Position numbers and translations under genes: made by a program. From Nostocoides sp. (lineage in GTDB: Bacteria; Actinomycetota; Actinomycetes; Actinomycetales; Dermatophilaceae), in NCBI GenBank assembly GCA_016716625.1, contig JADJVJ010000005.1, positions 4,237 through 68,236 on the forward strand: a DNA stretch of 64,000 bases. The letters run 5' to 3'. Every line of letters starts with the position of its first letter. Position 1 is the first letter of the stretch. The notes under the pieces are model-generated. The model saw only the letters and a program-made list of their open reading frames with translations, made no database searches and was not told the origin of the DNA. Shown in pieces: positions 1 through 64,000 of this stretch.

Positions 1-819
1 CTCCACCGCGGCATACACCTCGTCGGTGTAGTCGAGGAAGATCGGGAACTCCTCGACCGGCTTGGCGGCCCGCGCGGCCAGGTCGGCCTGCGCCTCACAG
101 AGGACCCGGATGAAGGCCTTGGAGGCCTCCAGGCCCTCGGCGACGACCTCTTCGGTCGGGGCCTGCTTGCCCTCGTTCTTGACCAGGTTCCAGGTGGCGT
201 CGGTGGCCTCGGCCTCGACCATCATGATGGCGACGTCGTCACCGACGATCCGGCCGGCGACGACCATGTCGAAGGTCGAGCGCTCGATGTCGCTGAAGTT
301 GGGGAACGCCACCCACTGGCCGTCGATGAGCGAGACCCGCACGCCACCGATGGGGCCGCTGAAGGGCAGCCCGGAGATCTGGGTCGAGGCGCTCGCGGCG
401 TTGATCGCGAGGACGTCGTACTGGTGGTCGGGGTTGAGCGAGAGGACGGTGATGACGACCTGGACCTCGTTGCGCAGGCCCTTGACGAAGCTCGGGCGCA
501 GCGGGCGGTCGATGAGCCGGCAGGTGAGGATGGCCTCGGTGCCGGGGCGGCCCTCGCGACGGAAGAAGGAGCCGGGGATGCGCCCGATGGCGTACATCCG
601 CTCCTCGACATCGACGGTGAGCGGGAAGAAGTCGAAGCCCTCGCGCGGGGACTTCCCGGCGGTGGTCGTCGAGAGGATCATCGTGTCCCCGTCGAGGTAG
701 GCGGCGACGGCGCCGCCGGCCTGCTTGGCGAGGCGTCCGGTCTCGAACCGGACGGTGCGGGTGCCGAAACGACCGTTGTCGATCGTGGCCTCGGCGAATG
801 TGAGCTCAGGACCCTCCAT
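1..819 (-). CDS. pnp: polyribonucleotide nucleotidyltransferase (PNPase), N-terminal 273 codons; the gene continues past the left window edge
   Basis: My translation of the minus strand from the ATG (complement of 817-819) gives [93 protein letters not shown]... A GGAGGG Shine-Dalgarno lies just upstream, and the rpsO-pnp synteny is classical. It is absent from the ORF track because it is open at the edge. Confidence 0.9.
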
Positions 820-906
820 TGGGCCCTCCTGTTCTGTATCTGTCGTATGCCGCGAGCATCATCGTTGTGCTGCGGTGGTCTTCAGGGGGTGGTGGTGCAT
901 GCCGAA

Positions 907-934
907 GAAGCGGTCCCCGGTTGGGAACCGCTTC
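907..934 (-). terminator. rpsO terminator/attenuator hairpin within the rpsO-pnp intergenic leader (820-949)
   Basis: GAAGCGGT (907-914) pairs with ACCGCTTC (927-934), plus an inner CCC/GGG (916-918 with 923-925). On the minus strand it is followed by TTCTTCGG. Its position between rpsO and pnp matches the structured pnp leaders known in bacteria (Actino-pnp-type motif). I could not run a covariance model. Confidence 0.5.
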
Positions 935-949
935 AGCGGACGTCTGTCG

Positions 950-1219
950 TCAACGGCGAAGGCCGAGGCGCTTGATGAGCGAGCGGTAACGCTCGATGTC
1001 GACGCTCTCCAGGTAGCGCAGGAGGCTACGGCGCTTGCCGACGAGGATGAGCAGACCACGACGGCTGTGGTGGTCATGCTTGTGGGTCCGAGAGTGCTCG
1101 GTGAGGTCCTTGATCCGCTGCGTGAGCAGCGCAATCTGCACCTCAGGAGAGCCGGTGTCGCCCTCGCCCTTGCCGTACTCGGCCATGATCTGCTTCTTGA
1201 CGTCAGTGCTCAGCGGCAT
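950..1219 (-). CDS. rpsO: 30S ribosomal protein S15
   Basis: 89 aa [60 protein letters not shown]..., a typical S15 sequence, located upstream of pnp. Confidence 0.97.
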
Positions 1220-61103: not shown

Positions 61104-61154
61104 GTGCCTGCGCGTTCTGATGCGTCGCGCTCTCGGCAGTGCCAGGATCGGGGT

Positions 61155-62819
61155 ATGACCTCACCCCGCGCCGGACACCTTGCCGCCCCCGAGGACCTCG
61201 TCGATGTCGCCGCCCTCGTCACGGCGTACTACACCCGCCACCCGGACCCCGACAACGTCGCCGAACAAGTAGCCTTCGGCACCTCCGGACATCGCGGCAG
61301 CAGCCTGAAGACCTCGTTCAACGAGGACCACATTCTCGCGACGACCCAGGCGATCTGCGACTACCGCCAGGCCCAGGGTTTCAACGGTCCGCTTTTCCTC
61401 GGCCGGGACACCCACGGCCTCTCCGAACCGGCCTGGGCCTCCGCCCTTGAGGTCCTGGTCGCCAACGAGGTCACCGTCCTGGTCGACGCCGCCGACCGCT
61501 TCACCCCCACTCCGGCGGTCTCGCACGCGATCCTGCGGGCCAACCGGGGCAAGGTTGCCGGGGTCGATGCGATGCCGGCGGGCTTCGGGCTCGCCGACGG
61601 CATCGTCGTCACCCCCTCGCACAACCCGCCGAGCGATGGCGGTTTCAAGTACAACCCGCCGCACGGTGGCCCGGCCGACAGTGACGCCACAAAGGTCATC
61701 GCGGCCGCGGCCAACGGCTACATCGCCGCCGGCCTGAGCGGGGTCAAGCGGGTGCCGTTCACCCGGGCCCGAGCCAGCGTCACGGCATACGACTACCTCG
61801 GCAACTACGTCGCCGACCTGCCGAGCGTGCTGGATCTCGACGCAGTCCGCGAGGCCGGCGTGCGCATCGGCGCCGACCCGCTTGGCGGCGCCGCCGTCGA
61901 CTACTGGGGGGCGATCGCCGAGCACCATCGGCTCGACCTCACCGTGGTCAACCCGCTCGTCGATGCCACGTGGCGGTTCATGACGCTGGACTGGGACGGC
62001 AAGATTCGGATGGACTGCTCCTCACCCTCGGCAATGGCGAGCCTGATCGCCCAACGGGAGGCCTACGACATCGCCACCGGGAATGACGCCGACGCCGACC
62101 GGCACGGCATCGTCACCCCTGACGGTGGCCTGATGAACCCCAACCACTACCTCGCCGTCGCCATCCAGTACCTCTATGGCGGCGCGCGGCCACAGTGGCG
62201 CGCCGACGGTTTCATCGGCAAGACCCTGGTCTCCAGTTCGATGATCGACAAGGTGGCCGCCGACCTCGGCCGGCGGCTCGTCGAGGTCCCAGTCGGGTTC
62301 AAGTGGTTCGTTCCCGGGCTGCTCGACGGCTCGGGCCCGTTCGGCGGTGAGGAGTCCGCGGGAGCGTCCTTCCTGCGCAAGGACGGCTCGGTGTGGACCA
62401 CCGACAAGGACGGCATCCTGCTCGCCCTGCTCGCCTCGGAGATCCAGGCCCGCACCTCCCGCTCGCCGAGCGAACTCTACGGTGAGCTCACCGCCCGGCA
62501 CGGGGCCCCGGCATACGCCCGGGTCGACGCCCCGGCGAACCGGGAGCAGAAGGCCCGGCTCGGTGCCCTCTCCCCGCAGGACGTGCGCGCCAGCGAGCTC
62601 GCCGGGGAGCCGATCCTCGCCAAGCTCACTGCGGCCCCCGGTAACGCGGCAGCGATCGGCGGGCTCAAGGTGGTCACCGAGTCGGCCTGGTTCGCGGCTC
62701 GGCCCTCGGGCACCGAGGACGTGTACAAGATCTATGCCGAGTCCTTCCGCGGCCCGGATCATCTCGCTCAGGTGCAGGCCGAGGCCCGCGAGGTGGTCTC
62801 TCAGGCCCTATCCGGATAG
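61155..62819 (+). CDS. pgm: phosphoglucomutase, alpha-D-glucose-phosphate-specific
   Basis: Internal ATG at 61155. [44 protein letters not shown] and [10 protein letters not shown] are present. Confidence 0.92.
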
Positions 62820-62848
62820 GGCCCGCTCCGGGTAGCCGTCCGACGGGC

Positions 62849-64000
62849 TCACGCGCCGTCGTCGGTCCCGGCCTGGGACTCCGGGGAATGCACCCGCTGG
62901 TCGCTGACCCACATGTCGATGAGGCCGCCGAAGTGACCCTCGAACTTCTCCCATTCGTGCGTGGGGTAGGTCTGGTGGATCGTTGAGGTGAGCACCCGAC
63001 GGAACTCCTCACTGTCGATCCAGGAGAGCACCATGTCGTCGACATGCGGCAGCGTCGCCTCGCAGAACTCGGCGTAGCGATCCTTGTCGAAGTGCGCGTC
63101 CGCGAGCGACTGATACCCCGCGAGCCGGCCCTGCTCGTCCAGGCCGGGGTCATCCGCGATGGTGAACCACGGCGCGGTGTCGACCTGGGTCTGGGCGCGT
63201 CGCCCGGTGACGGCACAGAAGACCGACCACGGAGCAGGGTCTTCATCGCCCATGGGAAGTAGTAGTGCAGCGAGGTCACCGCCACGTCGGGGCACGCGTT
63301 GGCGTAGTCGATGGGATAGACCAGCCCGTCCTTGACGAGCATCTCGCAACTGTTGAATTCCCAGCGGAAGAAGGCGTTCACGGTCTGCGAGATGGTCACC
63401 ACCTCGCCTACCTGCGGGGAGAGGAAGTTGTGCGCGACGGCATACCGATGGTGCATGGGCTCGTCGGGCTGGAACTTCATCACCATGGTCTCGGGGCCGA
63501 TGGTCAGCGCCCTGGCGAAGATGTCGTATCCTCGATGGATTCCTGGAGGTGCATGAGCATCTCCCGGACTCGTCGTAGGAGTGGTGCAGCTCGTCGCGGT
63601 CGTGGACTCGCGAGACCCCGCGCCAGCCACCGCCGTCGAACGGCTTCATGAAGAGCGGGTAACCCATCTCCTCGGCGATCTCGTCGAGGTTGAACTGCTG
63701 GTTGTACTTCGCCGAGGTGTAGGCCCACCGGGCGTTGTCGACGGGATGCTTGTAGGGCACGAGAACGGTGTTGGGGACCCGCATGCCGAGCCGGAGCAGG
63801 GCGCAGTAGGCCGAGTGCTTCTCCATCGACTGGAAGGTGAAGGGGCTGTTGAGCAGGTACACATCGTCCATGAGGGCCACTTTCTTGAGCCACTCACGGG
63901 GGTGGTAGTACCAGTAGGCGAGCCGGTCGATGACGAGAGCTCCTGCGGGGGGTGTCGCGCAGGTTGAACGGCTCGATGCTCACTCGTTCGGTGGAGACCG
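62849..64000 (-). pseudogene. ATP-grasp (RimK/glutathione-synthetase-like) protein; 5' end lies beyond the window; at least 4 frameshifts in this sequence
   Basis: Segments: ...VSIEPFNLRDTP | AGALVIDRLAYWYYHPREWLKKVALMDDVYLLNSPFTFQSMEKHSAYCA...MGYPLFMKPFDGGGWRGVSRV...YDESG | EMLMHLQESIED | YDIFARALTIGPETMVMKFQPDEPMHHRYAV...YYFPWAMKTLLR | WSVFCAVTGRR... The breaks are at the G-run 63947-63952, the C-run 63563-63565, about 63528, and about 63229-63233. Confidence 0.6.

Follow-up and report, generated by a model that had tools for sequence, protein, structure and literature searches.

The DNA uptake sequences (DUS) of the Neisseriaceae, 10-12-mers of the form ATGCCGTCTGAA together with their dialects, are read by the minor pilin ComP, and the uptake signal sequences (USS) of the Pasteurellaceae have the 9-mer cores AAGTGCGGT and ACAAGCGGT. 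To our knowledge, sequence-selective DNA uptake is known from these two proteobacterial families only, and the origin and purpose of uptake tags have so far been argued mostly from them. In cyanobacteria, the iterated word HIP1 (GCGATCGC) has a mechanism that is still unresolved. Here we analyze the non-palindromic octamer GTATGCCG, which is hyper-abundant in a 64,000-nucleotide stretch of the genome of Nostocoides sp. (Actinomycetota, Dermatophilaceae; assembly GCA_016716625.1, contig JADJVJ010000005.1, positions 4,237 to 68,236), hereafter called the window. An earlier reading of these letters (the original prediction) had likened the octamer to uptake sequences and to HIP1-like motifs, and had named as alternatives a Chi-like recombination signal and a by-product of biased mismatch repair or methylation.

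DUS have been described as common to a whole family, their dialects differing by one or two bases from lineage to lineage (PMC3630211), and USS as created by point mutation, amino-acid replacements included (PMC2817400). The octamer resembles DUS in being non-palindromic, in occurring about once per kb on both strands, in lying within genes and in excess between them, in forming terminator-like hairpins from inverted pairs, in having dialects, and perhaps also in being scarce in mobile DNA, to judge from one phage and one plasmid. It differs in its length (8 bp rather than 10-12 bp), in the absence of the essential CTG core of DUS, and in its host, a Gram-positive high-G+C phylum without the type IV pilus ComP, in which the role of reader would fall to a Tad/Flp pilus or ComEA. 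By coincidence, the 9-mer GTATGCCGT, which extends the octamer, contains ATGCCGT, the heptamer with which the 12-mer AT-DUS begins. With USS the octamer has in common its density, strand symmetry, preference for tolerated frames, creation by point mutation, two family-level variants and partial site conservation between species; USS, however, has AT-rich, helically phased flanks, whereas here only a weak position 9 lies beyond the octamer. The likeness to HIP1 rests on a hyper-abundant octamer, intragenic placement through synonymous changes and lineage variants, but HIP1 is palindromic and carries methyltransferase sites, while GTATGCCG is asymmetric (which excludes it from the class of HIP1-type highly iterated palindromes) and the halves of its C variant, described below, are independent. 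Chi (RecBCD/AddAB) and the FtsK-orienting polar sequences (KOPS) and SpoIIIE recognition sequences (SRS) are also short (5-8 bp), over-represented and taxon-specific words, and are read by a DNA motor protein; they are G-rich and strongly co-oriented with replication, whereas this motif is unskewed and far more enriched.

The statement that no such motif is known in Actinobacteria agrees with the searchable literature, in which the 8-mer, the 9-mer and the C variant have never been printed as a motif and uptake sequences have not been linked to Actinobacteria, Tetrasphaera, Intrasporangiaceae or Nocardioides.

Abundance of the octamer in the window

An exact recount over the whole window retrieved 27 copies of GTATGCCG on the forward strand and 21 of the reverse form CGGCATAC, 48 in total, which corresponds to 0.75 per kb or about one per 1.3 kb on both strands. 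Every start listed in the original prediction was matched, with none extra and none missing, and the 26 copies given there for the 9-mer GTATGCCGT were recovered as well. Despite its three A/T bases, the octamer is the joint top-count 8-mer of this 69% G+C DNA. Mononucleotide composition predicts 2.3 copies of the 8-mer and 0.36 of the 9-mer, close to the earlier estimates of about 2 and about 0.3, and Markov models predict 1.1-3.4 copies of the 8-mer at orders 1-3 and 10.8 at order 4. Two minor tallies needed amendment: TATGCCG occurs 55 times rather than 54, and the count of 5 for the one-base neighbour GCATGCCG is correct for the forward strand alone, with 9 copies present over both strands. 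The edges of the octamer are sharp, as had been claimed; the flank logo shows no conservation except at position 9 (T in 26/47 copies, A in 2/47).

Genes were called with a codon-usage log-odds caller, which yielded 56 coding sequences (CDS) covering 89% of the window. Thirty-five copies fall within these CDS (17 sense, 18 antisense), 11 are intergenic and two overlap start codons, which replaces the earlier division into 39 coding and 9 intergenic copies. Shuffling synonymous codons left only 3.2±1.7 copies in the CDS (maximum 9 in 300 shuffles), and permuting codons left 1.6±1.3. An Euler shuffle that preserves codon pairs is a conservative control, because the TAT-GCC and GCA-TAC pairs made by the motif itself are kept; it still gave only 10.5±2.5 copies (maximum 18 in 200 shuffles). 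The original prediction had named similar counts under such a shuffle as grounds for its own rejection, and since the counts remained far below 35 it withstood this check.

Checks against artefacts and larger repeats

An artefactual excess, whether produced by codon or dipeptide bias, by fragments of a longer mobile repeat, by contamination with the Illumina P7 adapter or by long-read basecalling errors, is effectively refuted. What could be said for it is that most coding copies lie in just two reading frames (Tyr-Ala and Ala-Tyr), that the P7 adapter includes the 9-mer (ACGGCATACGAGAT), and that frameshifts in the valS, clpP and clpX genes of the window hint at indel errors. The three codon-aware shuffles rule out codon or dipeptide bias, and the motif moreover employs the rare codons TAT, GCA, GTA and ATA and is enriched about twofold in non-coding DNA. 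Literature matches to the 8-mer were all P7 adapters, but the flanks in the window differ from the adapter and independent assemblies agree on the sites. A unit of a longer repeat was rejected on the unconserved flanks, and the repetitive extragenic palindrome, miniature inverted-repeat transposable element and interspersed-repeat classes on the lack of any shared extended sequence and on the 73-75% of copies that lie inside genes. The motif is also found in isolate genomes, for example those of Phycicoccus elongatus Lp2 and Nostocoides veronense.

The independent assemblies were found by using two proteins encoded in the window, S15 and Ndk, as look-up queries. The matches were Illumina wastewater-metagenome contigs, indicating that the organism is an activated-sludge actinobacterium. 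Contigs of the same species, 99.5-99.8% identical over window positions 1-27917, carry all motif copies of that region unchanged. Among strains of 99.5% identity no motif base was variable where 1.1 were expected, a comparison that is underpowered. Several wastewater metagenomes that are independent of each other contain this species again, at 99.5-99.8% identity (L081-L100, ENA/Logan; e.g. PRJEB8087, ERZ272803xx series), which makes it an abundant activated-sludge organism.

Distribution among relatives and recognition profile

We compared 80 loci of about 23 kb around the isoleucyl-tRNA synthetase (IleRS) gene, taken from species-representative genomes and numbered L001 onwards. The IleRS of the window has no exact match on record and clusters with those of the Dermatophilaceae/Intrasporangiaceae (Phycicoccus, Nostocoides, Intrasporangium), with a best identity of 78%. 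Hyper-abundance of GTATGCCG is confined to a subset of this clade, and elsewhere among the 80 loci the T form, as we call it, has 0-1 copies. The motif-rich relatives, at 0.6-1.6 copies per kb, comprise the metagenome-assembled genomes L002 (35 copies in 23 kb), L025 (32 in 20 kb), L007 (27 in 23 kb), L001 (15 in 23 kb) and L005 (14 in 23 kb), together with Phycicoccus elongatus (L049; 23 in 23 kb), Intrasporangium sp. (L021; 16 in 18 kb) and Nostocoides veronense (L014; 11 in 19 kb). Genomes that have neither this motif nor any of the variants described below are interspersed, including Agilicoccus (L008), L004, L024, Microlunatus (L027) and others. Against a baseline of 1.37 Mb of motif-poor loci, the 253 kb of motif-rich DNA hold 233 copies, 83 times the expected 2.8; counting in relatives, a check that the original prediction had suggested, therefore shows the enrichment to be lineage-specific.

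Near-matches to the octamer are enriched unevenly over the same baseline. GTATGnCG with A, G or T at position 6 is 14-24 fold enriched, GTATGCGG 9 fold and CTATGCCG 3.5 fold, while GTACGCCG is depleted in these T-variant genomes (10 observed against 75 expected from relatives). The enrichment profile is that of a recognition matrix of a protein (sTATGnsG, weakest at position 6) rather than the result of random decay of perfect sites.

Sequence variants

Comparison across the loci places GTATGCCG as one variant within a broader motif family, GTAYGnSG, which pervades Nocardioidaceae and Kribbella as well and which the original prediction had missed. Among the relatives, L019, L020 and L013 carry GTATGCGG in place of GTATGCCG, and Nostocoides has GTATGnCG with a relaxed position 6. 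The C variant, GTACGnCG, reaches 0.9-3.3 per kb in Nocardioidaceae, Kribbella, L003 and L030, as compared to 0.12-0.27 per kb in motif-free genomes; loci rich in it at 1.5-3.3 per kb include L003, L011, L029, L034, L041 and L064. L003, a carrier of the C variant, is placed by the IleRS tree beside L001 and the window. Position 6 is nearly always C in most T-variant genomes and can be any base in C-variant genomes, in which GTATGnCG was found 0 times against 8.6 expected.

In each of the six frames, the C variant is commoner in 339 kb of Nocardioides coding DNA than in synonymous shuffles. On the sense strand the observed counts (with shuffle means) are 34 (2.3) at offset 0, 26 (5.5) at offset 1 and 263 (130) at offset 2, and on the antisense strand 10 (2.5), 169 (51) and 73 (5.9) at the same offsets. 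Between Nocardioides genes it is 7-fold enriched (59 observed, 8.3 expected), and its two orientations are balanced in 16 of 17 loci. The GTACGnCG context accounts for over half of the GTAC sites of C-variant genomes; position 7 of the logo is C in 83% and position 8 is G in 71%, compared with 41% and 26% in Pseudonocardiales. Both halves around the palindromic GTAC core are present in 102 sites where 104.7 are expected, and since the halves thus occur independently, the unit is an asymmetric 8-mer and the palindromic 12-mer CGnCGTACGnCG was ruled out as the real unit in Nocardioides.

Several other words were noted in these loci. In L010 (13.9 kb) ACGGCATC (equivalent to GATGCCGT) occurs 13 times against 1.0 expected and may be a further variant differing at position 2, less sharp and seen in a short locus. 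Microlunatus kandeliicorticis (L027) carries about 10 copies in 23 kb of another, longer interspersed repeat with fully conserved flanks (approximately CCCTTCGACAGGCTCAGGG), unrelated to the octamer. The counts of 25 and 14 for CCCCCCCC in L028 and L047, where fewer than one is expected, point to long poly-C/poly-G runs.

Origin of sites in orthologous genes

Aligning IleRS codons, an orthologue comparison proposed earlier as a check on synonymous origin, revealed synonymous changes to rare codons and, in addition, amino-acid replacements. At a conserved AAYA, motif genomes read GCG GCA TAC while the remaining genomes use GCC or GCG, and at a conserved V-C-R they read GTA TGC CG, with GTC or GTG in the remaining genomes. 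A replacement of YT by YA (TAC ACC to TAT GCC) arose independently in the non-sister genomes L002/L010 and L002/L025. Relative to the outgroup consensus, 13 distinct IleRS sites required one change in 3 cases, two in 4 and three or more in 6, and these changes touch all eight positions, most often position 4 (C to T). Between the T-variant sequences (the window and L001) and the C-variant L003, only one or two sites are in-place conversions of GTATGCCG and GTACGCCG; most of the sites compared stand opposite unrelated 8-mers. Seven of 19 window sites are common to other motif genomes, as compared to an identity of about 15% for control 8-mers. Each lineage thus goes on building its own sites and partly keeps them, and a directional force acts on the whole word. 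The claim of a constraint on the DNA rather than on the protein is borne out.

The summed C and T forms (GTAYGCCG) amount to 0.96 per kb in T-variant genomes and 0.59 per kb in C-variant genomes, against 0.1-0.3 per kb in motif-free ones, so that the sum is not conserved but raised 3-10 fold. A bias at a single position only shuttles copies between the C and T forms and therefore cannot raise their sum. A by-product of very-short-patch repair or 5-methylcytosine deamination at one position was rejected on this ground, and because all positions change and sister lineages acquire sites independently; the mismatch repair or methylation alternative of the original prediction is thus not supported in its simple single-position form. 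Outside the motif context GTAC is about equally frequent in both kinds of genome (1.1 per kb in T-variant, 1.3 per kb in C-variant), and general GTAC avoidance therefore fails to explain the T variant. Deamination of inherited C sites, as a passive route to the T variant, was discarded together with such avoidance, as position 6 differs and the sites are mostly non-homologous. A hint of deamination or very-short-patch repair from the lack of GTATGCTG (0 observed against 7.3 under a Markov model) was set aside, as only 0.7 are expected on an empirical baseline.

Reading frames, orientation and pairing of copies

In the window, 13 copies are read in sense as Tyr-Ala (G|TAT|GCC|G) and 14 in antisense as Ala-Tyr (CG|GCA|TAC), with 4 as Met-Pro, 3 as Gly-Ile and 1 as Arg-His. 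The full motif is carried by 13 of the 59 Tyr-Ala and 14 of the 63 Ala-Tyr dipeptides encoded in the CDS. Codon counts agree with the claim that TAT, GCA and ATA are rare: TAT is used 98 times against 327 for TAC, GCA for 115 of 2250 Ala and ATA for 6 of 751 Ile codons. In two copies the internal ATG is a start codon (rpsO and a valS-like gene), giving Met-Pro N-termini from GT-ATG-CCG at 1214-1221 and 32486-32493; the same use is possible at 52083-52090 and 59917-59924.

Pooling the window with nine motif-rich loci (229 sites in 249 kb), we found that the 13% of DNA that is non-coding holds 25% of sites, an approximately twofold excess (P about 4e-7), and that the sense to antisense ratio of 94:77 is not significant. 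Neighbouring copies at most 120 bp apart are inverted in 26 cases and direct in 10 (P = 0.006); together with the perfect 18-bp hairpin described below, this supports the earlier claim of inverted pairs forming hairpins. Forward and reverse copies number 27/21, 8/7, 18/17, 7/7, 13/14, 9/7, 14/18 and 10/13 in eight motif-rich stretches. The pooled 106:104 confirms the strand symmetry that had been claimed, and because orientation is balanced in all of them, a replication-polar signal of the Chi or KOPS kind is excluded and the Chi-like alternative raised in the original prediction is not supported. Spacing between sites is at most marginally more even than random (coefficient of variation 0.85 vs 0.96±0.06, P = 0.035). 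Motif density shows no relation to gene GC3, taken as a proxy for foreign DNA, all loci being core regions.

Mobile DNA

The 49-kb genome of one phage, Tetrasphaera phage TJE1, holds 2 copies, the chance level. In pNOCA01, a conjugative Nocardioides plasmid typed MOBF/MPF_T and not TraB-type, the C variant has a density of 0.27 per kb, at baseline, over the initial 30 kb of the backbone stretch; the backbone stretch ranges over 0.27-0.54 per kb and the metabolic region reaches 0.88 per kb, while chromosomal loci of other Nocardioides have 1.5-2.4 per kb.

Copies and neighbouring features along the window

The following assignments rest on exact motif matches and our own gene calls; strands refer to the motif. 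Tyr-Ala copies in sense orientation lie in pnp, encoding PNPase (9-16, -), an AmiS/UreI-like gene (3686-3693, +), the formate dehydrogenase gamma/NuoE-like gene (5766-5773, +), the NuoF-like gene (6521-6528, +), an amidohydrolase gene (15478-15485, -), ileS (23841-23848, -), an ABC ATPase gene (29536-29543, +), an acyltransferase gene (32229-32236, -), a valS-like fragment (33741-33748, +), the valS-like C-terminal fragment (34895-34902, +), an Asp-Al_Ex permease gene (49493-49500, +) and, twice, the maltokinase gene (53864-53871 and 54704-54711, both +). The ileS copy has a motif at the same aligned position in L001, L014 and L022. Antisense copies reading as Ala-Tyr, the gene being CG|GCA|TAC, were found at 3802-3809 (-) and 30776-30783 (-), and in the NuoF-like gene (6862-6869, -), the amidohydrolase gene (14537-14544, +), folC (20882-20889, +), a TrkA_N open reading frame (ORF; 36944-36951, -), trkH (47366-47373, +), the same Asp-Al_Ex permease gene (48715-48722, -), glgB (56553-56560, -), a pyridine nucleotide-disulphide oxidoreductase gene (58908-58915, +) and the phosphoglucomutase gene (61783-61790 and 62509-62516, both -).

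Met-Pro is read in sense in the formate dehydrogenase alpha gene (8136-8143, +) and at the 3' end of the ABC ATPase gene (30243-30250, +), as well as near the 5' end of a TreS-like gene (52083-52090, +), where it may be the true start; the two start-codon copies belong to rpsO, encoding S15 (1214-1221, -; ATG CCG), and to the valS-like ORF (32486-32493, +). Coding antisense copies are read as Gly-Ile (GGC ATA) at 8974-8981 (-), 15691-15698 (+) and 52384-52391 (-), and as Arg-His in a decarboxylase gene (12323-12330, +). One further antisense copy (40481-40488, +) lies in an uncertain 711-aa ORF without family matches, and another (63438-63445, -) lies beyond a trimmed gene call but within the longer ORF 62849-63880 (-). 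Intergenic copies are located between rpsO and pnp (845-852, +), between lpd and ndk (17453-17460, +), at 35004-35011 (-; the inverted partner of 34895), at 35639-35646 (+), 12 nt upstream of tRNA-Pro (48118-48125, +) and in a divergent intergenic region (59849-59856, -).

Three inverted pairs stand out in the window. The pair at 44205-44245 (-; copies 44205 + and 44238 -) forms the perfect 18-bp hairpin (-54.8 kcal/mol, z -7.5); it lies some 130 nt downstream of tig and is terminator-like without a U tail. The pair at 59896-59924 (+; copies 59896 - and 59917 +) makes a hairpin with a 10-bp stem at the 5' end of an M48 peptidase gene, of which the ATG of 59917 may be the start. The pair at 24609-24684 (-; copies 24609 + and 24677 -) lies in the ileS leader, where it makes up the base of a long stem that surrounds a T-box-like GGUGGUACCGCG. 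Within the minus-strand RNA of this leader (24550-24700), the stem closed by the motif pair encloses GGCAAGCGAGGUGGUACCGCGGAGG, which looks like an actinobacterial ileS T-box; the Rfam T-box model gave no match to the leader even at E<=1. The same arrangement occurs upstream of ileS in L001 (9845-9931), L002 (9534-9607), L025 (9854-9903) and L049 (9829-9925).

Other features of the window include divergent tRNA-Gly(UCC) and tRNA-Pro(UGG) genes (47956-48212) and a cobalamin riboswitch (43 bits; 24893-25007, +) that precedes the gene of an SCO2321-family membrane protein and a CbiQ/ABC-ATPase transporter cluster (25315-30253). Some essential genes are broken across reading frames: the valS-like gene is split into three ORFs (32488-34964, +), the N-terminal zinc-finger part of clpX lies in another frame (37333-38621, -) and one clpP is in two pieces (42232-42875, -); these splits are either assembly indel errors or real pseudogenes, and the retrieved Illumina contigs span 1-27917. 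The roughly 3.3 kb between the clpX and clpP fragments (38266-41570) have a lower G+C (about 0.67) and contain only the weakly coding 711-aa ORF (39356-41491, -), for which no Pfam or NCBIfam match was found. This interval falls in a motif-poor stretch (36.9-44.2 kb) with one copy in 7.3 kb against 5.4 expected, which is not significant (P = 0.03 before multiple-testing correction).

Discussion

By analogy with the described uptake systems, we tentatively propose that GTATGCCG could be a lineage-specific 'self' tag on chromosomal DNA that serves uptake or exchange and has spread through molecular drive, a reading that we regard as quite possible and short of probable. One sequence-specific protein of a competence or cell-to-cell exchange apparatus would read the tag as double-stranded DNA, and tagged fragments would enter cells and recombine more often than untagged ones, so that any tag-creating mutation would be over-transmitted; models of Haemophilus USS and Neisseria DUS describe molecular drive of this kind. 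Both strands would then accumulate the tag to a density near one per kb, within genes in the frames that the proteins accept, chiefly Tyr-Ala and Ala-Tyr, and with less restriction between genes; intergenic inverted pairs would be co-opted as hairpins, and changes in the specificity of the reader protein would give rise to the dialects GTATGCCG, GTATGCGG and GTACGnCG. We infer that the reader would be an uptake or transfer machine, and the force recombination-coupled drive rather than selection at each site. It is also possible, though we put it forward with somewhat greater reserve, that GTAYGnSG represents the first uptake or exchange specificity family outside the Proteobacteria, with dialects in at least two actinobacterial families (Dermatophilaceae/Intrasporangiaceae and Nocardioidaceae/Kribbellaceae) and a receptor that would presumably belong to the Tad-pilus/ComEA competence apparatus.

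At the sequence level, the motif displays those hallmarks of uptake sequences that can be tested there, namely density, symmetry, frames, intergenic excess, pairs and dialects. The anatomical side of the earlier comparison with uptake sequences (density, symmetry, frames, hairpins, variants) thus stands, and its functional side stays an analogy. Micrococcus luteus, of the order Micrococcales, offers a precedent for the machinery. Natural transformation via Flp/Tad pili and ComEA/ComEC has been established experimentally in this actinobacterium, and the same genes reportedly often occur together in Actinobacteria, which makes uptake machinery plausible (PMC4322843); within the window there is no candidate gene for the receptor.

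Several points weigh against an uptake or exchange tag. A role in uptake would be carried over to these organisms from known systems by analogy. The motif is 8 bp long with razor-sharp edges, whereas USS and DUS span 9-12 bp and have weaker flanking positions, and one-mismatch variants of GTATGCCG at positions 2-5 show no enrichment over the motif-poor baseline. The difference between the C and T variants sits on CpG/TpG, as cytosine methylation and deamination would give, and the HIP1 of cyanobacteria is a very similar genomic pattern without a known uptake role. The scarcity of the motif in mobile DNA is suggestive only, resting on one phage and one plasmid that were compared with chromosomes other than those of their own hosts, and the sample comprises about 20-64 kb per genome, all from housekeeping regions.

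In an alternative that we hold to be somewhat unlikely, a HIP1-like modification or repair system of defined sequence specificity, for example a methyltransferase with directed short-patch repair or biased gene conversion, writes and maintains the motif with no transport of DNA between cells. A density of about one per kb, intragenic placement through synonymous changes and lineage variants make up the HIP1 pattern, the variants contrast GTACG with GTATG, GTACGCCG is depleted in T-variant genomes and GTATGnCG in C-variant genomes, and the patchy distribution with its switches of specificity recalls modification systems. However, the raised C+T sum is more than a single-position bias can deliver, new sites arise through changes at every position and bear no relation to the sites of sister lineages, the depletion of GTATGCTG vanishes on the empirical baseline, and GTAC is not generally avoided; a contiguous asymmetric specificity of 7-8 bp would also be unusual for cytosine methyltransferases, and phage TJE1 shows no enrichment. 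The same lack of enrichment in the phage fits a selected binding site of a chromosomal protein, be it a Chi-like or defence self-signal for AdnAB/RecBCD or a site for a nucleoid-organising protein. The sharp, weight-matrix-like specificity, the retention of sites above background and the marginally even spacing would agree with such a protein, and Chi sequences too differ between taxa. We nevertheless consider it unlikely: Chi, KOPS and SRS depend on orientation and follow replication, while here the orientation is balanced, in the C-variant loci as well; the enrichment of 20-80 fold is far above that of known Chi sites; and across thousands of sites that cost rare codons or amino-acid changes the advantage per site would be too small, which is the classic argument for drive.

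Drive could also be coupled to conjugation, through a site for the TraB-type, FtsK-like double-stranded DNA translocase of actinomycete plasmids and integrative conjugative elements; motif-rich segments of the chromosome would then be mobilised more often. The winged-helix gamma domains of FtsK, SpoIIIE and TraB recognise words of exactly 8 bp (KOPS, SRS and TraB recognition sequences, respectively), as long as the motif, the carriers are actinomycetes, where such conjugation exists, and transfer-biased drive predicts the same signatures as uptake bias. This appears quite improbable to us, since plasmid-specific specificities would hardly stay constant enough to shape housekeeping genes across families, since the Pseudonocardiales, classic hosts of such elements, have no comparable motif in 545 kb, and since the backbone of pNOCA01, itself not of TraB type, is at baseline density over its first 30 kb. 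That the true cause lies outside all the explanations listed here seems to us about as unlikely as a selected binding site.

If the octamer is indeed an uptake or exchange tag, it would constitute a third, independent case, in a Gram-positive high-G+C lineage whose sister lineages carry the tag, have switched it or are without it, so that drive and selection could be tested against each other. A sequence-specific DNA receptor would be implied, as would species-selective natural transformation or gene exchange in phosphorus-removing wastewater bacteria and in common soil Nocardioides. Including the tag in constructs may raise transformation, and the tag could aid the binning of contigs and the spotting of foreign DNA. 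If the motif has no part in uptake, genome evolution would have a new mechanism, one able to place an 8-mer in housekeeping genes in spite of their codon preference.

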